Assembly: GCF_033153115.1 (NCBI RefSeq)
Contig: NW_026889782.1
Span: forward strand, 26,908,001 to 26,972,000
Reading direction: 5' to 3'
Source of the DNA: Saccostrea echinata
Lineage: Eukaryota
Length of the DNA stretch: 64,000 bases
Part shown: positions 44,343-61,019 of the stretch, piece by piece
How positions within the stretch are numbered: the first letter of the stretch is position 1
How the letters are laid out: every line of letters starts with the position of its first letter
Position numbers and translations under genes: made by a program
Notes under the pieces: generated by a model
The model's database searches: none
What the model was told of the DNA's origin: nothing
What the model saw: only the letters and a program-made list of their open reading frames with translations

Positions 44343-44686
44343 AGTAGTATAAAGGGGTTTTTTTCGTACCTAGTTTATACGCCCTGTTTTGGCGATACGC
44401 CCTGTTTTCGCTATACGCCTGGTTCTATAAAAGGATATGAGGAATATTGGTTTTCCGATAAACGAAACAGCGGGCAGTCTTTTGTGACCCTGGTTTTGCA
44501 ATAAAAGGATATGAGGAATATTGGTTTTCCAATAAACAAAACAACAGGCAGTCTTTTATGACCCTGATTTCGCTATACGCCCTGTTTTCACGATACGCCT
44601 TTTTTTAACAAGGGTGTATAGGAAAACTTAGTCTTATACGATATGGGTTTTTTTTTCTCCCCTATACTAGAGAGAAACTTAACACC
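44343..44686 (+). repeat. Left TIR of the Polinton
   Basis: Inverse match to 60551-61019; internal ATACGCCCTGTTTT motifs. Confidence 0.92.
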
Positions 44687-45374
44687 CGATTTTATTCGCT
44701 AAGAATTCTCACACCTCTTACCTTATGTGTTCTATATCTTTATTTTGTTAGAGATAGGGGAAAATGTTTAAAATTATTAGTTCGCCAGGCATAAGGCGAG
44801 AAAAACGATAAACTAATGTAAAAATAATATATATATATGGTTATTATTTCTATTAAAATTATTCAATACTAATGTAATTTGGTAAAGATTTTTTTTTTCT
44901 GTTAGTCGAATTTATCGGACCTGTAAGGAACTCTTTAATATGAGAAGGTAAAATTTTGGAATCGTCTGCTGTGTATGTACGGTATTTTGTAAGGTTATTG
45001 TTCCCCCTGCATGGAAAGTAAGCGACAAACACTCAACTCTTAGGGTGTCTTAAAAGGTGTGAAGATTTATGCTATAATCTACACGATTTTTTTTCTGTTA
45101 TTACCAACTCGATTTCACGTCCTGTTATGAGGACAAAAGAGGGTATATTATGTATAGATAACCTACTGACTCGATATTGACAAGGTGGTCTCGATCACTT
45201 TTTGTTACTTTACAATCAACATTAATTCCGAGATGCCCTGCTGAGCTAACGAAACTAATTACTTATCACTTTGCATTATAAACGCTCCTACAATGATTTT
45301 CATCAAAGAGATTCTCAAGGTCTCAGCAAATATTAAAGAGGTTTCGTTTAGACTTGGTTCATTTCATCATCAAA

Positions 45375-46049
45375 ATGGACTGGACAGAGAACATTGATAT
45401 AGATCCTCCAAGGGATGTACTAGAAAAAATTGATAGACTGGAAAGAGCCTACATAGCCAAAGAGGTAAATATTTTTCTTTGTATTATTAAATGTGTCTTG
45501 ATACGAATAATAGATTTACATCAAGAAGATTTTCTTACATATAATCAAAAAAGAAAACGCTAAAATAAAAAAAAAAAAAATCACGCAGTTATTTAGTTTG
45601 ACGATTTTTATCTTAACAAAAATTAAAAGGAAACTGATAGGAAACGGTCAAAAAAAATATCGACTGTTGAGTTTTGGTTCGATAAAACGACATCGATATT
45701 TATTATCGTTTATATTTAAGAGTTGTTTTTACGTGTGATTAATACATTATGGTACTTTTTTTTAAAAAATAACTATGATATTCCTTTATGAAATTTAATC
45801 GGTTTTACATCTAATCATTTTCATAACCGAGTTTAAAAAAATCGTTTAATAATGAGAAAAAAATTTAAGCATCGAAATTTCTTTCTTAGAAATTCAAACA
45901 AAATAGACGAAATGGGGAAGAAAAGAAAGAAGCATCTGAAGTATATATTTTGTTTATATATTTGTTATAGGTATACAAATAAATTAAACAAAAGTTTTGA
46001 ATCGATATTACATGTATAAATATATATATATTTTTTCAATGTTTATATT

Positions 46050-46080
<31 letters not shown>

Positions 46081-46791
46081 AATGACCGAGTTAAAAAGCA
46101 TCGTCTAAAATGGAGAGAAAAAATAAAATTGAAATTCCTTTCTTAGAAATTCAAAGAAAATACTGGAAATGGAGGGGAAAAGAAAGAAGATTCTGAGGTA
46201 TATTTTGTCCGATGTGTAGAAATAATTAAACAAAATGACAAAGAAAAAAAATCTGATAAAACGATTAATTTTTATCATTGTTAATATTTAACAGTTAATT
46301 TTATTGTGTAATTCATACTTTATAGTACATTTTTTTAAAGACCTATGATATACCTTTATGAAATTTAGTCAATTTTCATCTATGTATTTTAATGATCGAG
46401 TTATTAAAGAATTTATAAAATCGAGAGAAAAAAAAATTTAGCATTGAAATTTGTTTCCTAGAATATCGAAGAAAAAAGACCAATACAGAATAAGGACGAA
46501 TCTGAGGTACATTTTGTCTGAATACATTTAATATATGCAACTGTTCACCCAATTTAATCGTGCAATTATTTTATCCTTATACTTACTGTAGAACGAAGAA
46601 AGACGGGTGGGCTTTTTCATGGTTTCATCTAAAAAGAAAAGTCCTGTACGTACCTTTGTCTGGTTGATTACAAGAATTTGTGTATCTATTTTAATCGAGC
46701 AACAAAATCATGCATTTTTTTTTTATTTATTTAGGGAAAAGGAAAGAAATTAACAAAGAAAGACGAGTAGGGCAAAGCGAAGCAAAGTAAG
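45375..46791 (+). CDS. Putative spliced micro-exon gene or pPolB 5' exons (45375-45464, 45890-45940, 46147-46197, 46462-46506, 46592-46645, 46735-); highly charged product
   Basis: Purine-rich blocks bounded by YAG/GT; first four are phase 0 and stop-free; the 3' join is unresolved. Confidence 0.55.
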
Positions 46792-46992
46792 GTATACATG
46801 TATATATATTTACACGTCATCTGAAACATTCCGTTATAGATGAAATTCTTAATCCCTTGTTATAATTTTTTTTTTTTTTTTACGCAGACTCGGAAACCTT
46901 CTCACAAGGTCAAACCTCTGAATTATATAATAATCGATTAAGTTTAGGGTAGTGGGCAGAGTTCTAGAGACAGACCATCGACCTCCTATGAC

Positions 46993-49900
46993 ATGACCTC
47001 AGACGAAACATCACAGAGTTCATTAGACAGACCCTCAACCTCCTATGACACGACCTCTGACCAGGATGAAACATCATCCGACAATGACAGTCAAACGGAC
47101 GATGACCCTGCGTTACAATTCCTACTGAAAAAGTACGAGAGACTCATAAACAGACCCCACCAAGAAGGTGTAATTCAAAAAGAATACAATTTTGCTGCGC
47201 ACAATTTTAATCTTTCTTATGACGATCTCGAAAAACAATTGAACGACATATACCAAACTGAAAAGCATGCCTTTAAAATCAACTTTTCTCTCGGAATTGT
47301 GTTGAGAAACACGGAAGGCGAACTGCGATATTTTTATGCTTCTGGAAATGACTCCTTGTTAAACGAACCTTATCAGATATCAAATAAGAAAGACTTAGAT
47401 AATTTAATCTTGATTTTAAGGAACAAAGATCTTTTGCAGATAGCGTTACAGTCGCGCCCGAACTCAAAATGGAGCGTTTATGTCGTCACAAACATTAGAT
47501 CGGTGGTCGTCAGAACGAATTATATTTTAGGGGCGGGTCGTAAGCTACCGGACTATGTCAAAAATAAAAAGTGCATTATCGCACTGAACACCAACAGCGT
47601 CGATGGTAGTTTAATTGAAGACAATTTATGTGCTTTCCGATGCTTGGCTTACCACCGAACACAAAATAGGAAAGGTCTAGAAAGACTTACTTTGAAATAT
47701 TACAGAGAATTTTTTGGCCATAGGGTAACCAAACGTACCAAATTTAATGGGCTCACCCTTGAGGACATTCCTCATTTCGAAAACAATTTTGATATCAATG
47801 TCAATATATTTCAATTGTTCGAGGACCAAACCTGCGTCCACATTTATCGTTCACGTGGAGTGTTTCAAGACACGATGAACTTAAACCTATTCGAAGACCA
47901 TCTCAGCTACATAAAAAATCTAGATGTGTATTGTAAGAAGTACGAGTGTCGAAATTGTAAAACTCTTTTCCCCACACAAGGTAAAGTCACCCGCCATGAA
48001 AAACGCTGCAAAGAGGCTACTAGGTTCATATATCCAGGGGGTTACTATGCCCGACCGCGACATATTTTTGAAGAACTCGAATATTTAGACAGTAAAGTAG
48101 ACAATGACTTGCGGTTTTATCCTTTTTTCATTACATATGATTTTGAAGCGATTCTTCAAACAGATGATCTACCCCCCGCGACACAAAAATCTACTTGGGC
48201 TCAAGAGCATCGACCCGTATCATTTTCGATATGCTCCAATGTTCCGGGACATGTAGATCCCGTTTGTCAAATGGATTCGGACGTCAATAGCTTAATTCAA
48301 AAGTTTGTACTTGCCGCAAGTAAAATACAGTCTACAGCTCAGAAGTACATGCGAGCCCGTTTTGCAAATGTTTTGAAAAAGCTTTCCCTCGAATCTAAAA
48401 AATTACAAGAACTTTCTGAAGAAATCTTACATAGAGACGATGACAGTGATGACGAGGATGACGATGACGACGAGAGACAAGCCATAAACACGCCCCTTTT
48501 ATGTCACATTAAACGAATACAGGCCAAACTCGACACTTACATCAATGAGATACCGGTCTTAGGGTACAATAGTTCCAAGTACGATTTGAATTTAATAAAA
48601 ACCAAATTTGCGGAATGTTTGAAACTACCTCAAAGTAAGAAAAATTTTGTTGTTAAAAAGTGCAATCAGTACATGTGTATTAGTAATGGCCAATTCAAAT
48701 TTCTAGATATCAGTAATTTTGTAGCACCAGGGTTTTCCTACGACATGTTCATCAAATCCTACGAAATAGAGTTGCATAAATCGTTTTTTCCTTACGAGTT
48801 TCTCACGTCGTTTGATAACCTGGAGCATACGCAGCTTCCACCCTACGAAGCTTTTTACTCTTCCCTTAAAAACTGTAATGTGCTAAACGAAGAACACGCG
48901 CGATTTCGTCGCTTAGTCGTCGACGAACAACACCCCGTTGCCGTCGCATTGAAAAAAATGAATCTAAAGAAACCGCCTCCTACCGGACCGGAGAATTACG
49001 AAAAACTTCGCGCTTTATGGGAGGAACGCGGCATGCGCACTCTCAAAGATTATCTCGAATATTACAATAATCTGGACGTACTTCCCTTCTGTCAGGCGGT
49101 GTCAAAGATGCTCCGTTTTTACACATCGCGGAATATTGATCTATTTAAGACATGCCTCAGCGCGCCCGGGGTAGCAAGGGAAATCATTTTTCAATCTGCC
49201 GCCGGAAAAGGACATTTCGCGTGCTTTGATGCCCAAAATAAAGACTTGTATAGTATCTTTGGGAAGGGAATGTGTGGTGGTCCCGCCATCATTTTTCATC
49301 GCTACCACGAGAGGTATAAAACATTCATTCGGAAAAATGTCAACCAAATTTGTAAGAAAATCGTAGGGTACGATGCTAATGCCTTGTATTTATGGGCACT
49401 CAGTCAAGACATGCCCACCGGTCCTTTTACTATTAGAAAAGAAGAAAACAATTTTCAGCTAGTCAAACGAGATCGCTATTTAAAAGCTTTGTATTTCTTA
49501 GAATGGTTAAGACACAGTCGAGGTGTCAATATTGATCATTACTTTAACGCGGGCAAAGAGTTCCGTATTGGTCCGTATCGAGTAGACGGTTATTCTAGAG
49601 CAGAGAAAAAAGTATACGAATTTAACGGTTGCTACTTTCATCGACACAAATGCGCTCTGACTGCTCACATTCAGGACCCTAAATGGTTAAAGGATCAAAA
49701 AAAAGTTCAGAAACGCGAGCAAGAGCGAACAGAATACATTAAAAACCAAGGCTATGACATAGAAATCACCTGGGAATGCCAATACGAGAATTGGTTAAAA
49801 ACGTCCCCCGAATTTAAAAGATTTATTGAAGAGCAACGCCGAAAGCGCCCTCTAGAACACCGAACGACATTAACCAAGTCTGAAATCTTAACCGCCATTC

Positions 49901-51075
49901 GCGAGAAAAAAATATTCGGCGCCGCAGAAGTCGATATACACGTCCCCGATCATCTTTTAGACAAATTTCAAGAAATGTCCCCCATTTTTTGCAATGCCGA
50001 AATTCCATTTGAAGCTCTCGGACCATATTCTCAGGAAACGGCACAAAAATTAAATTTGGGAGAAAAACCGCGACGGTTATTAGTCGGAGGTATGCGCGCG
50101 CGTAAAATTCTACTGGCTACCCCTCTCTTAAAGTGGTATTTAGAACACGGTCTTATCGTTTCGCGCATATATCAAGTTATAGAATTCACCCCTAGCCCCT
50201 GTTTTTCCGATTTTACGAGCGAAGTTAGCAATGCTCGTCGTCGCGGTGATAGTGATCCGCGTTTTGAAATATTCGCGGATACCATGAAACTCATTGGAAA
50301 CAGCGCGTACGGATCAATGATCATGAATAAAGAAAAACACACGGAAATTACTTATTGTGCGACGAAAGAAAAAGCAGGATGTTTTGCCTCTAAAAAACGG
50401 TTCCGAACATTGACCGAACTCAATAATAATCATTTCGAAATCGAGCTTGCTAAATCGCGCATAAACTTGGATTTACCAATACAAATAGGATATTTCGTGC
50501 TTCAATATGCCAAGCTGCGTATGCTCGAGTTCTATTATGACTGCGTCGATAAATTTTGTAGCCGTCAAGATTTCGAATTGATGTCCATGGACACAGACTC
50601 TCTATATATGGCCATATCAGCTGAAAAGTTTGAGGACATAATTAAACCCGACATGAAACCCCTTTTCAAACGGGAAAAAAATCAATGGTTTCCTCGCACA
50701 GAACCTGTTGAGGCGGCATCCTTTGATCGTCGCGAACCTGGTTTGTTTAAGGAAGAGTTTGTAGGGACGGGCATGGTAGCCCTTTGCAGCAAAACCTATT
50801 GCGTGGAAAATAATCTAGAACTTAAAAAGAGTAAATTCAGTTGTAAAGGTTTAAATAAAAACAATTTCAGCCACCCTCTGTCTTTATATAAACGTGTATT
50901 GTTCGATAATACCACGGCCGGTGAGACGAATCGCGGTTTCCGCGCCCGAAATAACACGATCTTTACTTACACTCAACGACGACAGGGACTGACTTCTTTT
51001 TATCCTAAGCGCAAGGTCTTGTCTGACGGAGTGTCGACAACCTATCTTGAAATGGAACTGTGCCCATGGGACTAG
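46993..51075 (+). CDS. pPolB: Protein-primed family B DNA polymerase with N-terminal TP/vOTU-like region, Zn finger and internal VSR-like nuclease
   Basis: Exo motifs YDFE, YNSSKYD, YNNLDV; pol motifs YDANALY, KLIGNSAYG, MDTDS; DNLC..H; CRNC..H...C; YRVDGY..YEFNGCYFH. Confidence 0.97.
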   Translation: MTSDETSQSSLDRPSTSYDTTSDQDETSSDNDSQTDDDPALQFLLKKYERLINRPHQEGVIQKEYNFAAHNFNLSYDDLEKQLNDIYQTEKHAFKINFSLGIVLRNTEGELRYFYASGNDSLLNEPYQISNKKDLDNLILILRNKDLLQIALQSRPNSKWSVYVVTNIRSVVVRTNYILGAGRKLPDYVKNKKCIIALNTNSVDGSLIEDNLCAFRCLAYHRTQNRKGLERLTLKYYREFFGHRVTKRTKFNGLTLEDIPHFENNFDINVNIFQLFEDQTCVHIYRSRGVFQDTMNLNLFEDHLSYIKNLDVYCKKYECRNCKTLFPTQGKVTRHEKRCKEATRFIYPGGYYARPRHIFEELEYLDSKVDNDLRFYPFFITYDFEAILQTDDLPPATQKSTWAQEHRPVSFSICSNVPGHVDPVCQMDSDVNSLIQKFVLAASKIQSTAQKYMRARFANVLKKLSLESKKLQELSEEILHRDDDSDDEDDDDDERQAINTPLLCHIKRIQAKLDTYINEIPVLGYNSSKYDLNLIKTKFAECLKLPQSKKNFVVKKCNQYMCISNGQFKFLDISNFVAPGFSYDMFIKSYEIELHKSFFPYEFLTSFDNLEHTQLPPYEAFYSSLKNCNVLNEEHARFRRLVVDEQHPVAVALKKMNLKKPPPTGPENYEKLRALWEERGMRTLKDYLEYYNNLDVLPFCQAVSKMLRFYTSRNIDLFKTCLSAPGVAREIIFQSAAGKGHFACFDAQNKDLYSIFGKGMCGGPAIIFHRYHERYKTFIRKNVNQICKKIVGYDANALYLWALSQDMPTGPFTIRKEENNFQLVKRDRYLKALYFLEWLRHSRGVNIDHYFNAGKEFRIGPYRVDGYSRAEKKVYEFNGCYFHRHKCALTAHIQDPKWLKDQKKVQKREQERTEYIKNQGYDIEITWECQYENWLKTSPEFKRFIEEQRRKRPLEHRTTLTKSEILTAIREKKIFGAAEVDIHVPDHLLDKFQEMSPIFCNAEIPFEALGPYSQETAQKLNLGEKPRRLLVGGMRARKILLATPLLKWYLEHGLIVSRIYQVIEFTPSPCFSDFTSEVSNARRRGDSDPRFEIFADTMKLIGNSAYGSMIMNKEKHTEITYCATKEKAGCFASKKRFRTLTELNNNHFEIELAKSRINLDLPIQIGYFVLQYAKLRMLEFYYDCVDKFCSRQDFELMSMDTDSLYMAISAEKFEDIIKPDMKPLFKREKNQWFPRTEPVEAASFDRREPGLFKEEFVGTGMVALCSKTYCVENNLELKKSKFSCKGLNKNNFSHPLSLYKRVLFDNTTAGETNRGFRARNNTIFTYTQRRQGLTSFYPKRKVLSDGVSTTYLEMELCPWD

Positions 51076-51384
51076 TCCATTGTTTGTGTATATACCCCCT
51101 TTGTTTTAGTCCATAGAATAGCCCTCCGGATGAGTCCATTTTTAGGGGAAGGGGAACTAACTTTTATGTTAATTTGTTATGTCCCTATATTTTGACTAAA
51201 ATTTTATAAATTTGTAAATTAAAGACAATGATAACAAAGATAGTATTCATTGTAAATAAATAAAAACTGAATATATTTTTTTCCGTTTATATATAAAAGA
51301 AAGGTTATAACCCTGCCTCCTCCTCACCCCTTCTTTTTCCCATCACCCTTAGTTTTTTAGGTTTCTTGTGTTTTATTGAGGAGG

Positions 51385-52297
51385 ATGGCGACGTTAATGA
51401 TTCTGCTTAGTTTAGTGTTTGTGGTACAGGGAGATTTTTCGAAATCTTGCCTATCTAAGGGAAAAGTTCTCCTCTGTGAGAAGGTTGAGGGTAATCTAAC
51501 ATGTCAGAATGCCGGAGTCAAACTGCTGAATGCTGAGAGACTTGTAATGACAAATCCCAAGATTGAGAAAGTGGACATCACCAGCCAGTGCCTCCCCAAG
51601 CTGCGGACAGTTGAAATCGTGAGATCGGGGATGATGAATTGTTCTGACTTTGCAACGTTCTCACTGGTCATCATCAACAGGAGAGTTTGTGTATACACAG
51701 TAAGTTCATTTTTTTTTTCGATGTAATTATTGTATATTTCTGTATTTATTTTTATTATTATATTTTGTAAAACTCATATTAATAAGACATAATATTTCAT
51801 GTAGACATCCAGCACACCACGGATCGTCTCAGGAAAACCTCCAGCAGACTCGAAGAGCTCGTCGTCAACAACTGCAGTGACTCCGTACAATGTGACGGTC
51901 ACCATGGTGACAGAGACCACTACTGTGGAGAACGCGACCCTGCAGTCAACACTGCATTTCTTCCCAAGAGACAGCGACAAAACAAAAGAAGGTACTTACT
52001 TAAAATTCTATTTATGATGGCATGCATAATTACATGCATATGATTATTACGTTTTTTTAAAAAAAAATAATAATAATAATATTTTTACATGTAGATGTGG
52101 CGTTACGGGCAGTCGTCATTACTCTCAGTATTTTATCCGTATTACTGATCATCCTGGTGTTTGTCCTGTTGAAGTGGAAACGTTGTAGACGTAGTCGAGG
52201 AAGAAAACTGCCGATGGCTGAGGATCTGGGGAGTTCTGAAGTGGTGTTCCTGCGTTCAGCAAGCAGGAATCCGTACTCCGAAACAAAGTTTGAGTGA
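51385..52297 (+). CDS. Three-exon type I membrane glycoprotein, 234 aa (exons 51385-51699, 51805-51991, 52095-52297)
   Basis: GT-AG introns, phases 0 and 1, splice in frame; signal peptide, 6-Cys domain, S/T stalk, TM helix, basic tail; TATATAAAA at ~51290. Confidence 0.85.
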
Positions 52298-52750
52298 CTT
52301 GACATTTTGACTCTCTCTCATTCTGTACAGTGATTTTATTTTTTTTTTTTCCTAATTGTATGCTATTTTTGATGATAAAGCGTTATGTGCTATATGTAAA
52401 ACAAGATAGTTATTTTTCTTTTTTTTTTTTTGTAGCGTATTTTAATATTGAAGTGATTTTTCTGTTTGGTATTTTTTTTTCTTTAAAACATTTGCTTTTT
52501 AACTTATATGGAGAATCTTAGCGATTACCTTTTATATATTTTTTTTCAAAACAATATTTGCTGTTTTATTTAAAAAAAAAAATGTTATTAACATTTAATC
52601 GATAACAACAAATTATCAGAGTTATTTTGCGCAATCCAATAATTGTGTACATAAAAATAAACCTGCTTTTTAGTGTGGCATATTTTCCATTTGAATAATT
52701 AAAACACACAAGTTTTCTGACTTTCTTTTATTACTGTTGTTATATTACAA

Positions 52751-52933
52751 TCACAAGGACATCCATTTGCTGGGAATTTTCACGCCTGGTGGGGCATCCT
52801 TTCTTCCAGCGACACCTAGTCTTTTTGTCAGTGGTTTTTCCGGAGATTTCTGTGTCGTTTTTGTACTCACAGCGGGTACTGCTTTCAGTCGCTGGTACTC
52901 ATCTTTAGGTATTAACACGAACTCAGTGGACAT
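52751..52933 (-). CDS. Small Polinton protein
   Basis: MSTEFVLIPKDEYQRL start, overlaps the stop of the upstream gene in the minus-strand block. Confidence 0.55.
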   Translation of the reverse strand: MSTEFVLIPKDEYQRLKAVPAVSTKTTQKSPEKPLTKRLGVAGRKDAPPGVKIPSKWMSL

Positions 52934-53243
52934 ATTTTGCAAGGTCTGGAAGCAAAGGTTTTAGTAAGACAGGAAGAAATCCGTGGCGTCGGAGTAACAG
53001 ATTCTTTTTGTTTCTGCCCTTCTTCTTAGCTAATCGACGCAGAATATGTCGATACTTGTAGAGATTTTTGATGAAGGATTCGGAGGGTAAAATCTCACGA
53101 TTATGAATAACGTTATAAATCACTTCTAAGAGAGTCTTTAACTGCTTGACACTGATCGTCTTTAATAACACTCGGCGTTGTCTGACGCTTGTAGTGGCTA
53201 GCTAGTTTAAAAAGGCCCAGTTCTGACGAAGGCGGTCGCTCAT
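52923..53243 (-). pseudogene. Basic Polinton protein with in-frame TAG at 53204-53202
   Basis: ATG overlaps the ATPase stop (ATGA); MSDRLRQNWAFLN*LATTS..QLKTLLEVIYNV. Confidence 0.7.
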
Positions 53244-53908
53244 GTTTTTCTCATGTAAACGATCAATAGGTCACCTGGAAATATCCCTGTGCGCAGCGCA
53301 TAATCTCTGCGTCCGCTCACGGATAGGTCCACCAATAAATAAGAATAAGGTTTTTGCGTCGCCTTTTCATATGCGTCGAGAAAATACGACTTGTTTTGCG
53401 GATAGAGTTGGGTAGCTAAGAATTGAACTTGAAAATTATCTCGGGGGTTTTTGAAAAGAACGAGGTATTGACAATTTAATGAAATGACTCGACTGTACTT
53501 GCCTTGAGGAAACAAATTTTGAGAAATAAATATGACAGATATATTCATATGATGCACGTGAATAGTAAATAACTCCATATAATCAAAGGACTGAATGACT
53601 CGGTATACTAGATCATCCAAAACGAGTAAGAATTCCCCGCTCTGCGCAAATTCCTCCAGGTCTTGTTTTGAGGGTAAACCCTCGTAAAATATAACAGATG
53701 AATTGTGGTCCCGTATTTCTTGAAAAGCCGGTTGCCATTTTGAATACGCATACACAATCTTTTTAAGCGGTTTTGATAGAATCCCTTTGTCAAGATTATC
53801 TAAGATTCGTTGCGTAAATCGAGTTTTGCCACTCTGACTGGGACCACTCACAAACAAAGAGAAAGGCACCTTCAAAGCAAAATCACTGGGGTTCATGGTT
53901 TCATTCAT
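53240..53908 (-). CDS. A32/FtsK-like genome packaging ATPase
   Basis: Walker A GPSQSGKT, Walker B LLVLDD, FISQNLF, SLNCQYLVLFKNPRD. Confidence 0.95.
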   Translation of the reverse strand: MNETMNPSDFALKVPFSLFVSGPSQSGKTRFTQRILDNLDKGILSKPLKKIVYAYSKWQPAFQEIRDHNSSVIFYEGLPSKQDLEEFAQSGEFLLVLDDLVYRVIQSFDYMELFTIHVHHMNISVIFISQNLFPQGKYSRVISLNCQYLVLFKNPRDNFQVQFLATQLYPQNKSYFLDAYEKATQKPYSYLLVDLSVSGRRDYALRTGIFPGDLLIVYMRKT

Positions 53909-53955
53909 TTATTTCTTTTTTAATCTCAACATTTGACTTATATACAGACACAAAG

Positions 53956-54198
53956 ATGAATCACGACTCAATGTGGGGTATAAGAGAAAATGTGGATGTC
54001 AACTGGAAAGGAAAACGAAAAATCAGATGTCATATTGACACGTCTCATTTTGTAACTGTGTCTAGGAGAAAAAATCGGTATTACGTTAAAATCAGGAAAG
54101 GGAAGCGAGATCTTTCCTTATCGCCTGAGATGTGGGCTGTGATATGCGATCTAAAAGAAACGGTGTTACTGTGTTGTAATTTTTTGGAAACTAGTTAA
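53956..54198 (+). CDS. Small PC4-like protein
   Basis: FVTV....YVKIR....LSLSPEMW resembles PC4 YVSV....IDIR...ISLNPEQW. Confidence 0.6.
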   Translation: MNHDSMWGIRENVDVNWKGKRKIRCHIDTSHFVTVSRRKNRYYVKIRKGKRDLSLSPEMWAVICDLKETVLLCCNFLETS

Positions 54199-54200
54199 AA

Positions 54201-55331
54201 ATGGTTTTATCCGCGGAACTACGAGACTATTTAACTTCATTGTATTTCAACCCCGAAAAACCGGGAGCATTCAGAAGTCCGCTTCAGTTATGGCGACAAG
54301 AAAATCAGTATAAGATCGGGCTACCCAGAATTAAGCAATGGTTACAAAATCAAGATGTCTATTCAATGAACAGAACCGTACGTCGTCGTTTTAAGAGACC
54401 ACGGGTTTTCACGGGTGGAATAAAAGATCAGTATGACGCCGACTTAATGGATGTCGGATTTCACTCCAAAGAAAACGATGGAATCAAGTATTTATTGGTT
54501 GTGATCGACGTGTTTACTCGTTATGTGTGGGTATGCGCACTGAAAAATAAAACGAGCTCCAATGTATTAAAAGGTCTCAAAAATTGTTTTCAAAACTTGG
54601 GTTTTCCTCGCAAAATAAGAACAGATGCCGGAAAGGAATTCACGGCACATCTCGTTCAAAATTATTTAAAATCAGTCGAGGTTACACACTTTACTACTCA
54701 AGGAGAATCGAAGAGCAACTTTGTGGAACGCGTAATCAGAACACTGCGCAGTTTAATGCACAGATATATGAAAAAGACGCGTTCGTTTAGATATATTGAT
54801 AAACTACAGACATTGGTAACGAATTACAACCACACCCCTCATAGATCGTTGGGTTATAAAGCACCGAGTGAAATTAATGAGACTAATGAAGTCGATCAAA
54901 TTATTTTGCAATATTTTAAACCTCCTGTCAAGCGGAAAATAAAGAAAGTATCAAAACTGGCCAAGAAATTGCGATCGTCTTTTCGATTTAAGGTGGGTGA
55001 TACTGTGCGCATATCGCATTTGAAACATGTGTTTGAAGGCGAATTCATGGAGAAATTTACTGGCGAAGTGTTTAAGATAAAATCCCGATTTTTGAAACAA
55101 AATATCCCAATGTACAAGCTACAGGATTTAAGAAACGAAGATCTGACGGGTAGTTTTTATGAACAAGAACTACAGAAAATAGAAAAACCGGAAGACACAT
55201 TGTGGGAAGTGGAAAAAATATTGCGTAAAAGACGTCGAAATAATCAGACTTATGTTCTTATTAAGTGGTTGAATTTCCCTCGAAGTTTTAATAGTTGGGT
55301 GCCAGAGAGAGAAGTACAAGAGCTGGTTTAA
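54201..55331 (+). CDS. INT: Retroviral-like (rve) integrase with C-terminal chromodomain
   Basis: ADLMD, IDVFTR, TDAGKEF, VERVIRTL; WEVEKIL...VLIKW......NSWVP. Confidence 0.97.
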   Translation: MVLSAELRDYLTSLYFNPEKPGAFRSPLQLWRQENQYKIGLPRIKQWLQNQDVYSMNRTVRRRFKRPRVFTGGIKDQYDADLMDVGFHSKENDGIKYLLVVIDVFTRYVWVCALKNKTSSNVLKGLKNCFQNLGFPRKIRTDAGKEFTAHLVQNYLKSVEVTHFTTQGESKSNFVERVIRTLRSLMHRYMKKTRSFRYIDKLQTLVTNYNHTPHRSLGYKAPSEINETNEVDQIILQYFKPPVKRKIKKVSKLAKKLRSSFRFKVGDTVRISHLKHVFEGEFMEKFTGEVFKIKSRFLKQNIPMYKLQDLRNEDLTGSFYEQELQKIEKPEDTLWEVEKILRKRRRNNQTYVLIKWLNFPRSFNSWVPEREVQELV

Positions 55332-55335
55332 AGAA

Positions 55336-55728
55336 ATGGATTATTACATGGTCATTTCAGAGACAGACTTTTTAAATTATTATCCAAATAATACGCCTAA
55401 TGATTTCCGCGTTCACACGCCGAACACTAGGTTAAGGGGTCGGTGGTACGTGGGGCTCTGCGAAATGAGTATTGAAGTAGAACGGGAATGTGAAATATTA
55501 ATACTGTCGGATATCTGTTCAGATACACTGGTAGGGGGTGAGAAGAAACCTTTATTAAAGAGAATGAGGTTACAGAGTGGACAAAATGACGTCGCGTTCC
55601 AGCGCATCATGTATATTCCTATCGTCGTGACCGATTTTCATTCCATCAGAGTATATCTGGAGAGCCCAGTACTAACAAAACCAAAGGTGACTTTTGTGCT
55701 TCATTTTAAAAAATATCCTTTCATTTAA
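55336..55728 (+). CDS. PX: Minor capsid protein (penton, single jelly-roll), minimal form
   Basis: YPNNTPNDF ... WYVGLCE ... SDI....VG....PLL ... YIP ... VLHF. Confidence 0.85.
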   Translation: MDYYMVISETDFLNYYPNNTPNDFRVHTPNTRLRGRWYVGLCEMSIEVERECEILILSDICSDTLVGGEKKPLLKRMRLQSGQNDVAFQRIMYIPIVVTDFHSIRVYLESPVLTKPKVTFVLHFKKYPFI

Positions 55729-55730
55729 GC

Positions 55731-56057
55731 ATGCGCTCTTCGAAAGTGTATGTGGCAGACACGAAGAAATGGACAGATTTTTTTGTTAGTACGGCCGCTA
55801 CGCCCATTTCACATAATTCGTTACGACAGAGTGGGGGGAACTTGGGAAACGGCAGCATTAATACCACTGCCATAGTACCCATTGATTCCGGTCGCAACTT
55901 GCGAGGTGGGGGGGAAAGTCCCTCACCGGAAATCACCCTCGTCTCGCCCACACAACGAGATTTACAACAAGCCAAGTCAGAATTGCGTCGCGTAAAGCCT
56001 AAAAAGAGGAAAAGGACGTGTAAAAAAGCTAAACATTCCGATAATTTTGATTATTAA
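55731..56057 (+). CDS. Small basic protein, candidate core protein or protease substrate
   Basis: QSGG and LRGG motifs, LVSP, K/R-rich C-terminus; tightly packed in the structural block. Confidence 0.6.
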   Translation: MRSSKVYVADTKKWTDFFVSTAATPISHNSLRQSGGNLGNGSINTTAIVPIDSGRNLRGGGESPSPEITLVSPTQRDLQQAKSELRRVKPKKRKRTCKKAKHSDNFDY

Positions 56058-56058
56058 G

Positions 56059-56502
56059 ATGGAACCCGAAAGAGATGTCGCGTCGGATCTCATGATTAGA
56101 AAGAAACAATACGCAAGAGCCGTCAAAGTCACCGGAGTGTTGTTACTGCTGATACCGTTTTTCATTGTATTTGGAATGACGATAGACATTTGGAATAACA
56201 CACAGGCCTCTCCCCTGACCGTTAACGATACCAGAGCTTTTAACGCGACTCTCTGCGATTTTTTAAAATCGTTTCCTTTGACTGAGGCGGTGCATGTTAG
56301 CGTCTGCGTTTATCAGGGCTCCGTTCTAATTGATTTGAGACGTTTTTTGAATAATAAACCAACGATTAAAGGAATACAATTAAACCCCATTCAATGGCAG
56401 TACCTGAAAAGAATTTGGCCTTACATCGATCAGAGCTTAGTGCTGGCATCGAGACGCGATTTCTCTGCGCATAAAAGGGCAGAGAAGACTTCTCACAGTT
56501 AA
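56059..56502 (+). CDS. Membrane-anchored PC4-domain protein (147 aa)
   Basis: Basic N-terminus, TM VTGVLLLLIPFFIVFGMTI, sequons NNT/NDT/NAT, then VSV..YQGSVLIDLRRF...PTIKGIQLNPIQW..LK.....ID. Confidence 0.85.
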   Translation: MEPERDVASDLMIRKKQYARAVKVTGVLLLLIPFFIVFGMTIDIWNNTQASPLTVNDTRAFNATLCDFLKSFPLTEAVHVSVCVYQGSVLIDLRRFLNNKPTIKGIQLNPIQWQYLKRIWPYIDQSLVLASRRDFSAHKRAEKTSHS

Positions 56503-56510
56503 GATCCAAA

Positions 56511-57821
56511 ATGACGAGTCACGCATACGAAGACATTCAGGAAGGATTGCCCAGGGAACTACTGTTGTTTAATTTACCAGTGACGCAGACAGCTGTGACT
56601 CGTAACTATTACGTAGATTATAGACCCGTTTCTCAGATAAGCGAAAACGGACCCGTAGAATTCAGCGTACCCGGGACAGGAGATTATCTGGACTTTAAAA
56701 AAAGTTTGTTATATGTTAAAGCGCGAATCCTCAAAGCGAATGGTTCAGCTCTTGAGGCGGACGAGAAAGTCGGTCCTGTGAATAATTCTTTGCACAGTTT
56801 CTTTAATCAGGTGGACATTTCGTTAAACGGGAAACAGTTCCCGAGTAGTGGCGGGGCGGCCTATGCTTATAAAGCTTACCTACAGAATTTGTTAAATTAC
56901 GGAGAAGAGGCAAAACAATCCCAGCTTCAATGTAGCTTGTTTTTCAAGGATGATGCTGGTTATATGGATGTCGCGGACCCTAACGGTGCTAATTCCGGGT
57001 TGTACTCGCGCACCGTTTTCTGTTAAGAAAGTTCGTCTTTTGATTTAGAAGGGCCCATTTTAGAAGATGTGTGTCGACTCGATCGTTTTGTGTTAAACGG
57101 AGTAGACGTTAACATCAAATTGTATAGACAAAACTCGTCGTTCTGTCTCATGTCCGCCGAGGCGGATCCGCAGTACAAAATTGTCTTTGATGACGTCATA
57201 TTCCGGGTTTGCAGAGTACAGGTGTCGCCAGGTATCATAGTGGGGCACACAAAGGCTTTAGAAACGACTACAGCTAAATATCCCTTGATTAACACAGACG
57301 TAAAAGTGGCCTCTATTGCTGCAGGGCAAACCCGATTCATCTGGGATAACATTTATTTGACCCGCTGTCCCAGTAAAATCGTTCTCGGACTGGTCTCTAC
57401 GGAGGCCCAGACAGGGAGTTATGTGAAAAACCCTTTTAATTTTCAAACCTTTGGCGCTCGTCATGTCGGCGTATTTGTCAATAATGTGAGTGTTCCCGGG
57501 CAGCCTTATAAAATAGAAGAAAACTGTTACATCTCAGCTTACCACAGTTTATTTGATATTGTCGACAAATCCCAAATCGATTCCGGAAACAATATTGATC
57601 GAGACGATTGGAAGTATGGCTACTGCCTTTACGGCTCTTCGTTACAACCCCAGTTTGGAAACACAGATACCCTTTCTTTAATGAATCAAGCAAGCGTTCG
57701 ACTAGAACTAGCCTTCGAGCAGGCACTGACAGAAACCGTTTCCTGCATCCTGTATGCTGAATTCCCCTCTTTTTTTGAGATAGACAATACTAGAAATGTA
57801 ATTCTTAACTCTATATCATGA
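56511..57821 (+). pseudogene. PY: Major capsid protein (double jelly-roll, 436 codons) with a single in-frame TAA at 57024-57026
   Basis: LLLF..P.TQ, GPVEF, PVNN.LHS.F.QVD, YAYKAYLQNLLNY, NGVDV.IKL, GSY.KNPFNF; ORFs 56511 and 57069 share a frame. Confidence 0.93.
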
Positions 57822-58279
57822 ACGGATACCTCATTTCTGACCTATGTCGTTTAGATTTAGTTTTAGCTTCCCAGTTTGAGGGTGTATTTTCTCCGGATAA
57901 TTTACCTTTGAATGTTGACCACTATCCCCGTGCTTATATCGTTAACACTACATTTTCTACTACAGCCGGAGAACACTGGATAGCACTCTATTTTAGTTCT
58001 TCTCAACACTGTTACGTATTTGATAGTTATGGTAGGGACCTGAGTAGTTTGCCGTCTCAGATACACTCCTTTGCTGCTCGCAATTCATTTTCATGTACAT
58101 ATAATACGCTTATAATGCAAGACGTAGCTAGTCAAACGTGTGGACTGTATTGTATATTATTCATGCTAGTAATGAGTAGAATCTGTAATCTATCTGTATT
58201 TCAACGACTCTTTTGTGATGACTTGATCCAAAACGATGTTTTTGTGTACCGCATTCTTTATACATTATACAATCTTTGA
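57818..58279 (+). CDS. PRO: Adenain-like cysteine maturation protease
   Basis: GEHW, FDSYG, Q.....TCGLYC catalytic motifs; ATGA overlap with MCP stop. Confidence 0.95.
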   Translation: MNGYLISDLCRLDLVLASQFEGVFSPDNLPLNVDHYPRAYIVNTTFSTTAGEHWIALYFSSSQHCYVFDSYGRDLSSLPSQIHSFAARNSFSCTYNTLIMQDVASQTCGLYCILFMLVMSRICNLSVFQRLFCDDLIQNDVFVYRILYTLYNL

Positions 58280-58490
58280 GCTTTATCTCTCCTTCTATAT
58301 AGTACAATAAACTGATAACACCTTTGTGACAGATTTTATTTAATGATAAGAAAAAAAAATATATTGAGTGACAGATTTTATTTAATGATGAGGAAAAAAT
58401 ATACATAGTACAATAATTCTCAGAGTCTCTTTACATAAAACGCCACTGTTATATACACAGTAAAAAGTATAGTCCAACAGAAAAAAAAAA

Positions 58491-59192
58491 TCACTCAGAT
58501 AATTTAGACAGTTCAGATTGAAAGGCCTGGTCCTCCCTAGCATCGCGCAGGTATTTCTCCCCGTCCGATTCATCCCCATTGATTTCCTCGAACTCCCTCA
58601 CAATGACATCTTCCGGAATATTGTTCATACAATCTTGAAGGTACATGTCCCTCTTTTCCTCCCACGAAGATAGGCAGCCCATTTCCATGTGCTGTTTCTG
58701 GCTGGGATGATCCGTCAGGCATCCGTGGCAACGTTCCTTAGATTTACACGAAACCATCTTCCTCAGGATTTTCGTGATGATGGATTTCATGCACTGATCC
58801 ATCTGCTCGACTTCTTGATATGTCTCTTGGAATTTTCCCCATTCATTTTCGTTGAGTGCGATGCCAAATTTAGTAGGAAGGGCTGGATCTACGTGGAAAT
58901 TAAACACTCTAAAGTCCACGATGATAACGTTGCTGTCGGGGAATCTCTTCGCCGTTACCCGCTTGTTTCCCTCCTCGTTTCTCTGTAAGTCCCAAGTCTT
59001 AGACGGCGTTGAAGAGTTTTCTCTCAGTTTCTTTACATGCGCGTGAATTTCACTGATAATGTTTATCAGCAGCAACCACTCGGAGGCGGAGAAGGATATT
59101 TTCTTTTCCGGTTGGTCCACATTGTTCAGTCTTATTCTCTTCTCTTTCTGGTAGATGCCAGTCGTGAAAGTGATTCGCTCACTCAGGAACAT
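58491..59192 (-). CDS. Tandem PC4-like domain protein with C-terminal Cys/His motif
   Basis: KISFSASEW and IVDFRVF.....PTKFGIALNENEW PC4-like repeats; CHGC..DHPSQKQH...GC; first ATG at 59192. Confidence 0.8.
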   Translation of the reverse strand: MFLSERITFTTGIYQKEKRIRLNNVDQPEKKISFSASEWLLLINIISEIHAHVKKLRENSSTPSKTWDLQRNEEGNKRVTAKRFPDSNVIIVDFRVFNFHVDPALPTKFGIALNENEWGKFQETYQEVEQMDQCMKSIITKILRKMVSCKSKERCHGCLTDHPSQKQHMEMGCLSSWEEKRDMYLQDCMNNIPEDVIVREFEEINGDESDGEKYLRDAREDQAFQSELSKLSE

Positions 59193-59204
59193 GATTAATG
59201 TCGT

Positions 59205-59236
59205 ACTGAAAATGACTAGTGTGAAGGTTTTAAATA
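59205..59236 (-). promoter_or_regulatory. Putative TATA + Inr core promoter
   Basis: TATTTAAAA (59236) lies 29 nt upstream of the A in TCAGT (59207), just before ATG 59192. Confidence 0.45.
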
Positions 59237-59285
59237 ATATCCAGGCTGTGATGTCATCGGTCAAAAGGTGTTAAACTATATGATG

Positions 59286-59723
59286 TCATCTATATCCAAT
59301 CACAGTCCAGCTTAATTCCTGGCGGTGACGTCGGCGCATTTTTCTAACAGCTATGTCCATTCTTTTAAAGAAATGTTCCGGAGTGAAAAATCGTTCCTCG
59401 TCGAAATATTCTGAGAATATTTCTCGAAAGCATTCAATGATATTACATCCCATATGGCATGTAGAGGTCTCGTGCCAGGGCAAATCCAGGTCCTCGACTG
59501 TTTGTCCTCGGTCTATCCAGACTCTGCAATTGATGGCCTCTTGTGTAATCATTAAATTACGCGCGATTCTCGATAGCAATTGTGGTCTTTCAAATTGTCT
59601 AGATTTTTTGATGTAATAATATACATCTTCGTAAATCTGCTTCTCTCTGTCAAACAAACTTAACTCCAGTGAGAAACTAGCTAGATCTCGCAAAGGAAGA
59701 ACTTCGGTAAACATACGATACAT
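59286..59723 (-). CDS. Polinton hypothetical protein (145 aa)
   Basis: ATG-initiated ORF with the composition of the neighbouring viral genes; no recognised motif. Confidence 0.6.
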   Translation of the reverse strand: MYRMFTEVLPLRDLASFSLELSLFDREKQIYEDVYYYIKKSRQFERPQLLSRIARNLMITQEAINCRVWIDRGQTVEDLDLPWHETSTCHMGCNIIECFREIFSEYFDEERFFTPEHFFKRMDIAVRKMRRRHRQELSWTVIGYR

Positions 59724-60550
59724 GATCAGTAATATTTGTGTTGGTTTGCATCTGTTTCTTTTATTCAGATTCGCCCTTATTGATTAGTTTTCCGATTTCC
59801 CACAATATTCTAAAAGAAGAAATTCCATAATAATAGAAAAAGTCTTTTATGTCTTACAAGTCGTTAATATAACGCATACTTGGGACCGTTGCTCGTAACA
59901 ATAATTTTTTTCTCACCTTCCGTTGATGACCACATTTAATTACCTGTTTTAACCCATAGGGGGTCAAGTACATTTTCTTATCTTTTGATATAAAATACTT
60001 TTGTTATATAACGGTATTCACGATTATTGATTCATTCCACGATTTCTCAAAGGGAAAGAGATTCCATAATAAAAGAGTTGTTAATGTAATGTCTAGTTGA
60101 AAAGTTATTCGGAACAATAACTTTTTCTCACCTTCTTATGGTCGTTGCTTGTCTACTCAGATTTAATTAACTGACTTTACCTAGTATGAGATGTCAAATC
60201 TTCTTCTCTTCATTGCATTGTACTTTCCTACAATTTCTTACGAGTTCTGATCAAAATCGGTGACAGTTACTTTCTCTTTGGAGGGTTAACTGCATTTCAC
60301 CTAACGGTTTGAAATTTTCTGTAGCAATGGGTAATAATTGATTGTGAACATCATTTTTATTACGAAGTATGTAGATACTTTTAATAATCACATTCTGCTG
60401 TTTTCCTTTATGAAATCATTCTAAAATCAAATGTATATCTTTGAACGTTTAGAAATTTTTACTGAAATTAAGTGCTTCGTTTAATCCTGGTTCAACTGTG
60501 TATTTCATTCTATTCAGTTTAATTATACTACAAGTTTCTATTGTAAACAA

Positions 60551-61019
60551 GGTGTTAAGAATTGCTCGACTAGTATAGTGAGGAAAAAAATGTATAAGAT
60601 TCCGAAAACACCATCTCATAGTGAAAACAGGGCGTATAGCAAAACCAGGGTCCCGAAAGACTGCATGCTGTTTTCTTTATTAGAAAACTAATATTCAACA
60701 TTAAGTTTCCTTATACATCCTTGTTAAAAATAAGGCGTATCGTGAAAACAGGGCGTATAGCAAAACCAGGGTCCCGAAAGACTGCATGATGTTTTCTTTA
60801 TTAGAAAACTAATATTCAACATTAAGTTTCCTTATACATCCTTGTTAAAAATAAGGCGTATCGTGAAAACAGGGCGTATAGCAAAACCAGGGTCATAAAA
60901 GACTGCCCGCTGTTTCGTTTATCGGAAAACCAATATTCCTCATATCCTTTTATAGAACCAGGCGTATAGCGAAAACAGGGCGTATAAACCAGGTACGAAA
61001 AAAACCCCTTTATACTACT
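60551..61019 (-). repeat. Right TIR of the Polinton, including 121-bp tandem repeats
   Basis: Inverse match to the left end; units start at 60621, 60742, 60863. Confidence 0.92.

Follow-up and report, generated by a model that had tools for sequence, protein, structure and literature searches.

A micro-exon leader with twin splice donors precedes the polymerase gene of a Saccostrea echinata Polinton and may serve two proteins

Polyomaviruses make small t and large T with a common N-terminus by using alternative 5' donors, which results in either a small protein or a large replication protein. In adenoviruses, the E1A forms differ by donor choice, 22K and 33K have a common N-terminus, and a small exon further upstream encodes the first residues of both pTP and the polymerase. 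Adenoviruses are also the closest relatives of Polintons, and the available text of PMC7851563 describes early units in which one unit gives rise to several proteins (E1A 13S/12S/9S, L4-22K/33K, spliced E2B). Choice between splice sites is widespread in adenoviruses, so that the lineage already offers a precedent for the principle. For the core genes of Polintons, the usual view is that introns are lacking: in the accessible parts of the respective papers, intact vertebrate Mavericks are without introns (PMC8097293, which also relays the "intronless" statement of the 2006 Polinton paper), and Maverick cargo genes (wasp, krma) contain introns while core genes are called intronless (10.1101/2022.07.12.499685). 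Introners are described for dinoflagellate Maverick-like elements in the portion of 10.1101/2025.03.18.643946 that is available. Neither splicing nor exons are mentioned in the available text of PMC8502044, nothing relevant to either is found in 10.1101/2023.08.22.554363, and our literature searches returned no paper on a spliced Polinton polymerase; Repbase, supplements and subscription papers may annotate such exons.

The locus presented here lies in a window of 64,000 nucleotides from Saccostrea echinata (the whole stretch of DNA analysed) and is part of a complete Polinton/Maverick of 16,677 bp (44343..61019, without assigned strand). The element has AGTAGT...ACTACT ends, corresponding to the (AGT)2...(ACT)2 terminus motif as defined in the available text of PMC8097293, as well as terminal inverted repeats and a 6-bp target-site duplication, an identical hexamer flanking it left and right; 3 other copies each carry their own, different hexamer at both ends. 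Pfam searches recovered an rve integrase with a chromodomain (PF00665, 6.8e-15), an A32-type packaging ATPase (PF04665, 4.4e-6) and an adenovirus-type cysteine protease (PF00770, 3.5e-8). Two ORFs, 55273-55728 and 56475-57821, have a size and place that would suit capsid proteins (major and minor) and are candidates for these; neither gave a Pfam match or a meaningful PHROG match. The larger one (+ strand) is interrupted by a stop at 57024-57026 in the window copy. Termini, inverted repeats, 6-bp duplication, size, chromodomain integrase, ATPase, protease and a terminal protein (TP) plus vOTU before the polymerase all liken the element to Polintons and adintoviruses, as these are described in the accessible parts of PMC11071308, PMC8097293 and PMC8502044. 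Unlike in Polintons as described so far, the polymerase unit contains about 2-5 internal micro-exons, depending on the lineage, and a dual-frame last exon. In place of the intronless core of vertebrate and nematode Polintons, we find an exon chain upstream of pPolB that is in frame in related copies. The intron-bearing core is a variant of the Polinton type and does not set the element outside this group.

The pPolB open frame (46948..51075, + strand, 1375 aa, in-frame ATG at 46993) encodes, in this order, an S/T/D-rich linker, a terminal-protein-like domain (about 47167-47520), vOTU (about 47542-47937), an exonuclease, a VSR-like insert and the polymerase motifs; the exonuclease and polymerase motifs were located with motif strings. 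A structure model of the N-terminal 284 residues (pLDDT 86.7) matches OTU over residues 150-281 (Z 8.3, rmsd 3.6, 112 aligned) and a Y-family little-finger fold over residues 25-142 (Z 5.9, rmsd 3.5, 93 aligned), and both the little-finger-like fold of TP and the TP-vOTU layout are described in the available text of PMC11071308. On the basis of this model, pPolB is a protein-primed PolB with TP and vOTU, both of which are without a Pfam match and without a Foldseek match at E 0.001. The VSR endonuclease-like insert (residues 889-952; window about 49612-49803) gave weak PDB and PHROG matches, and such an insert has been reported for mollusc pPolB2 (10.1101/2023.08.22.554363).

The exon leader begins about 1 kb inside the left end of the element and consists of seven blocks on the + strand. 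Exon 1 (45375..45464, 90 nt) contains the start codon and encodes a conserved acidic, probably helical motif, of which lineages B, C and C2, as well as other data sets, contain homologues. Three duplicated phase-0 units follow, exon 2 (45890..45940, 51 nt), exon 3 (46147..46197, 51 nt) and exon 4 (46462..46506, 45 nt), and then exon 5 (46592..46645, 54 nt, phase 0), of which 15 of 16 residues are common with lineage B. Exon 6 (46735..46791) is G/K-rich and carries twin donors, GT 46787 and GT 46792. The last exon, exon 7, starts with a dual-frame segment (46888..46941): phase 0 ends with a conserved PLNYxxID-stop, and in related copies phase 1 continues without a stop into pPolB. All seven blocks were verified with their AG/GT borders and with lengths of 90, 51, 51, 45, 54 and 57 nt for the six that precede the last exon, including those at 46592, 46735 and 46888 (54 nt, 57 nt and the last exon), which the original prediction had listed as candidates only, and the translations are as described there. 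Both near-identical sister copies of the window element (L002 and L003; 96-97% identity over the leader and 99% over pPolB) keep all seven blocks with their lengths and splice dinucleotides, and L003 has a stop of its own in exon 1. Exon number, for which variation among copies had been suggested as a check, is constant among these three copies but variable between lineages. Exons 2-4 are also open in phase 2, with ATGs; we rejected this reading, as a stop closes it where exon 6 ends and the phase is set to 0 by exon 1.

Three stops in the phase-0 path, at 46768, 46939 and 46945, had been taken to indicate either a separate small charged protein or a decayed 5' extension of pPolB. Their positions are correct, but they are of different kinds. 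The stop at 46768, within exon 6, occurs in the window copy only (1 of the 3 near-identical copies), and 46945 adjoins a one-base frameshift near 46947 that is likewise private to the window copy and splits the pPolB frame from the phase-1 path. In contrast, 46939 is common to all 3 of these copies and is the conserved end of a predicted protein of about 130 aa. The two alternatives are not exclusive and probably both apply, with "decayed" fitting the window copy alone. Owing to its own stop at 46768 and the frameshift, the window copy would be able to make neither product by the routes discussed below.

Duplication of introns together with exons, which had been proposed from the similarity of the flanking introns, is supported for exons 2-4. 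With splice signals stripped, the interiors of introns 1 and 3 are alike at z 19.2 (145 of 181 positions aligned), those of introns 2 and 3 at z 5.5 and those of introns 1 and 2 at z 2.4; among the exons, 2 and 3 resemble each other at z 9.6, and exon 4 resembles exons 2 and 3 at only z 1.8 and 2.3, respectively. Membership of introns 4-6 in this family is not demonstrated by the comparison with introns 1-3 (z at most 3.1). Lineage B has exon 5 and two unrelated blocks in place of exons 2-4, and the triplication is therefore specific to lineage A, to which the window copy belongs. The process recurred independently elsewhere in the genome: L064 carries four such units in tandem, with intron z values reaching 22.7, and L061 carries a pair (z 11.6). 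Introners would appear as intron copies at unrelated sites without exons; here, the likeness covers intron and exon together, in tandem. Exons 5 and 6 (46592-46645 and 46735-46791) have a 19-of-21-nt stretch in common (z 5.3), which is read in different frames and possibly represents an older duplication. Host repeats or large insertions are present inside leader introns or exons of several copies (L067 about 2410-3630; L062; L074/L075).

Genome searches gave 11 matches to exon 1 and 91 to the N-terminus of pPolB; the lineage comparison covers 30 of these 91 and, for exon 1, all matches but L022 and L023. By DNA search, the leader is found in element copies only, apart from short matches, a result that is a lower bound. 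Lineages B (74% identity), C (68%) and C2 (50-60%) have exon 1, the G/K-rich penultimate exon and the last exon with PLNYxxID-stop in common with lineage A. More distant lineages (37-46% identity over 70 residues) start with a C2H2 zinc-finger first exon, continue with two to four phase-0 micro-exons and enter a further zinc finger and pPolB through a last acceptor that is phase 0 with pPolB (4 of 6 by script, 2 by eye). ORF-called relatives in other data sets contain such zinc fingers and linkers within a single frame. Protein searches returned P0010 alone as a spliced model, the other matches being ORF-called pPolBs, several of them with N-terminal zinc fingers in one ORF. On L061, a broken copy, the predicted RefSeq model XP_061190448.1, a Saccostrea echinata protein that fits this locus letter for letter, has five exons, all at sites of our own calling. 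Its last exon is read in the pPolB frame, which it reaches by a 58-nt form of an earlier exon with the penultimate one skipped. It supports a spliced start of pPolB and leaves the route open. L068, from a distant lineage, also has a spliced-looking membrane-protein gene of other sequence (about 1500-2050) upstream of the zinc-finger exon.

A frame-blind splice-site caller, based on generic matrices and not trained on Saccostrea echinata, called 29 exons in 15.3 kb from nine representative elements. Of these, 22 have lengths that are multiples of three (binomial p 3e-6, to be read with the caveats that tandem copies are not independent and that this was the second threshold set, loosened once from a stricter first set that gave 13 exons with 8 multiples of three). 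Among the controls, the reverse strands yielded a single call and 44 kb of host DNA yielded 6, of which 1 was a multiple of three. Three of the seven exons in the elements that are not multiples of three are the penultimate exon cut at the upstream donor, which is the donor favoured by the caller in lineages A, C and C2; in lineage B, it favours a third donor 23 nt further downstream that would include a stop, and the donor of the second exon is ambiguous. Overall, we are highly confident that the leader exons are real. One could suppose instead that AG/GT pairs occur by chance in AT-rich repeats, or that a captured host gene is decaying within the element, and the low GC content of the region (27-29%), its homopolymers and the breaks in the window copy and others would fit such a view. 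It is contradicted by the contig junctions described below, the 22 of 29 multiples of three, the conservation across lineages, the independent RefSeq model and the lack of a match of exon 1 to any host gene family; it is largely refuted already, and we give it next to no weight.

The two donors of exon 6 lead into different frames: GT 46787 would produce a 52-nt form in the pPolB frame, and GT 46792 a 57-nt form in the short frame. Of 15 loci, 14 possess such a pair, two donors on one exon leading to different frames as in small t/large T, with a spacing of 5 nt in 12 of them and 8 nt in the other 2; the remaining locus, which is decayed, lacks it. Offsets of 5 and 8 nt bring about an identical phase shift. 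Accordingly, the penultimate exon of lineages A, B, C and C2 would measure 52, 52, 70 and 58 nt in its phase-1 form (pPolB) and 57, 57, 75 and 66 nt in its phase-0 form (short protein), and the 42 nt before the twin donors have only 11-19 letters in common between lineages. Part of the conservation of the upstream GTAAG may be due to its coding for Ser-Lys.

Across four lineages, the variable columns in the last 10 codons of the short frame fall 2/2/8 on codon positions 1/2/3, and the stop swaps between TAA and TAG. Pairwise codon differences over these codons are 23 silent and 11 replacing in the short frame and 3 silent and 31 replacing in the pPolB frame, the pairs not being independent. 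Silent changes and the TAA/TAG swap in the phase-0 frame, and not in the pPolB frame, argue for selection on the peptide, and the short protein is, judging from these alignments, very likely under purifying selection in its own frame. The PLNYxxID motif pattern occurs at 15 places in the genome, and the reversed control gave 0. Reading in phase 1 meets no stop between the acceptor and the conserved part of pPolB in 2 of the 3 A copies, all 4 B copies, C (L059) and C2 (L060); were the short protein alone maintained, the chance of this frame being open would be 0.12-0.47 per lineage. Following the acceptor in the pPolB frame, the first ATG lies 87 residues past the conserved anchor in all 4 B copies and 46 and 106 residues past it in C and C2, corresponding to model residues 107, 66 and 126, respectively, inside the terminal-protein-like domain (25-142). 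Since B, C and C2 offer no ATG between the acceptor and this domain, a start further upstream, leading into the last exon in phase 1, is required for pPolB, and we regard it as likely that the leader exons supply this start. Retention of intron 6 was rejected as a route to pPolB, as a stop lies before the open stretch, and so was an acceptor downstream of the short stop, for which no lineage has a pyrimidine tract.

For RNA, six runs were compared as contigs only, their RNA nature being a guess; in three of them, contigs read across spliced-out GT-AG introns of a nearby gene, and these runs do contain spliced RNA. One of the six, X1, holds a spliced contig over the leader (604 nt, depth about 4). 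It consists of 23 letters like the end of exon 3, the whole of exon 4, exon 6 and the last exon on to 47368, uses the donor at 46792 and skips exon 5; the overlap that would join exons 3 and 4 is shorter than our 31-letter bridging rule. The contig differs from the window in 4 of 48 and 5 of 46 letters in the micro-exons (about 10%) and in 2 of 482 in the last exon, and its exon 6 is 56 nt by the record coordinates, a length that, given phase 0 upstream, suits the frame of neither product. Its junctions hence document splicing at the predicted sites in some copy, without an in-frame message. Exons 1, 2 and 5 have no junction cover among the 6 runs, no read or contig in these runs, with their one spliced contig, uses the upstream exon 6 donor, and X3 has an unspliced contig across 46507-46740. 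Within pPolB, X1 and X2 contigs skip 131-133 nt (50378-50512) and X1 skips 179 nt (49703-49883), in each case without GT-AG ends; these are probably divergent or deleted copies.

We therefore turn to the question of what the leader produces. Our preferred reading, which we hold to be the probable explanation as a whole, is that one leader serves two products by way of the twin donor of exon 6. The leader blocks would be host-type spliceosomal exons fronting the Polinton polymerase transcription unit, and alternative splicing would generate two proteins with a common N-terminus, a small K/E-rich protein (about 115-135 aa) and the full terminal-protein/vOTU/polymerase polyprotein. Use of the downstream exon 6 donor would keep phase 0 and end at PLNYxxID-stop, use of the upstream one, 5 or 8 nt earlier, would shift to phase 1 and reach pPolB, and the ratio between the two could set the amount of polymerase. 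The middle exons form a low-complexity linker, and phase-0 exon-plus-intron blocks can consequently be gained or lost without harm, which accounts for the variation in exon number. That the pPolB start is provided by this particular donor is, going by the sequence, a reasonable expectation, held with less assurance than the contribution of the leader exons as such.

Several other readings share part of this evidence. The polymerase frame might be reached by another route with the same two products, either from an earlier exon whose donor shifts the phase, exon 6 being left out, as in the RefSeq model on L061 with its 58-nt exon, or by ribosomal frameshifting in the overlap. In lineages A and B, exon 5 is followed by another GT at a distance of four bases that could serve in this way, although a GT at +5 belongs to the ordinary donor consensus, and the upstream exon 6 donor is without a read; however, such a route leaves unexplained why twin donors exist in 14 of 15 loci and why their distance changed from 5 to 8 nt with the phase preserved, and we consider it unlikely. 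About as improbable, in our estimate slightly more so, are two genes, with the micro-exons making only the small protein and pPolB starting on its own from ATG 46993, from an ATG in intron 6 with an internal promoter, by re-initiation or at a non-AUG codon. In lineage A, ATG 46993 is in frame 52 nt after the short stop, and both sister copies of lineage A, as well as L059 and L060, have an in-frame ATG within intron 6, which keeps this reading alive for these copies; the sole spliced contig, moreover, takes the short-frame donor. Against it stand all 4 B copies, which lack the intronic ATG and have none until the middle of the terminal-protein domain, the similar exon chain in frame with pPolB in distant lineages, and a phase-1 frame that is open more often than the short protein alone predicts.

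Conversely, the exons might serve pPolB only, the phase-0 form being an unproductive splice (an off state or noise) that encodes a functionless protein. While the higher score of the upstream donor in A, C and C2 would agree with this, and a stop so distant from the 3' end could, we infer, destabilise the message, the silent changes and the TAA/TAG swap carried by the phase-0 frame speak for a peptide that matters, and we find this reading decidedly improbable.

Under the two-product reading, the short product would have about 133 codons with exon 5, including 35 K/R and 28 D/E, and be laid out as an acidic first exon, a variable charged linker, a basic exon 6 and the conserved C-terminal motif. 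The adintovirus Oncoid, encoded upstream of PolB, has an Rb-binding LxCxE-type motif beside paired CXXC (PMC8502044, available text); as the seven exon translations are without cysteine, the short protein is not this Oncoid. Exon 1 had no PHROG match and matched no host gene family, and protein searches with the whole short protein revealed no homologue outside the Saccostrea echinata genome. Five short ORF-called proteins elsewhere begin with the exon 1 motif and continue into intron-like tails, and the first exon and its donor thus exist beyond this genome. Among eight matches of the exon-1 profile, P0015 and P0017 were dismissed as unrelated repeats; the cluster member P0027 is an unrelated transporter. 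Our guess is that the short protein acts in the nucleus as a basic factor that binds DNA or a partner and helps or regulates replication, with its acidic N-terminal motif in common with pPolB.

The proposed arrangement resembles polyomavirus small t/large T in its shared N-terminus, its alternative donors and its choice between a small and a large replication protein. The proteins are unrelated, however, and small t runs into the intron, whereas the short form here ends in the second frame of a shared last exon. With respect to adenoviruses, no sequence homology is shown; their leaders are few and fixed, whereas coding micro-exons multiply by tandem duplication in Saccostrea echinata, and the proposed switch would decide between a small protein and the polymerase itself. 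The introns of wasp and krma and the dinoflagellate introners likewise lie inside Mavericks, yet these represent host-derived cargo or mobile introns, in contrast to introns that belong to the replication unit and multiply with their exons. The element is also a case of a compact mobile genome that has gained introns repeatedly and recently, through tandem duplication of exons together with their introns.

If the polymerase gene does have a two-donor switch, this would bear on how integrated virus-like elements get switched on. It is conceivable, although we regard this as speculative and would not expect it on present evidence, that Polintons of animals control their own replication by a conserved splice switch composed of a twin donor and a dual-coding exon, with an N-terminal linker evolving by gain and loss of exon-plus-intron blocks, and that this is an ancestral trait of the Polinton-adenovirus lineage. 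If true, the host's tissue splicing pattern could decide where the element replicates, and ORF-based annotation would have missed spliced, alternatively read polymerase genes: as Polinton core genes are treated as intronless and annotated by ORF calling, pPolB N-termini and a small partner protein would have escaped notice.

Other features of the element were observed alongside the leader. An unannotated three-exon gene (51385-52297, + strand) encodes a type I membrane protein with a signal peptide, a Cys-containing ectodomain, an S/T-rich stalk, a transmembrane helix and a short tail. Its intron 51700-51804 (GT-AG) is joined in X1, X2 and X4 contigs and its intron 51992-52094 in an X4 contig; both A sisters have the gene, as do 3 B copies with about 60% identity, and it may have been captured from the host or be an accessory on the envelope side. 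PC4-like domains (PF02229) are found in the ORFs 55996-56502 (+ strand, 8e-8) and 58491-59270 (- strand, 1.7e-4). The internal arrays of the terminal repeats differ, with a 74-bp unit present twice on the left (44427-44577) and a 121-bp unit present 2.6 times on the right (60621-60938).
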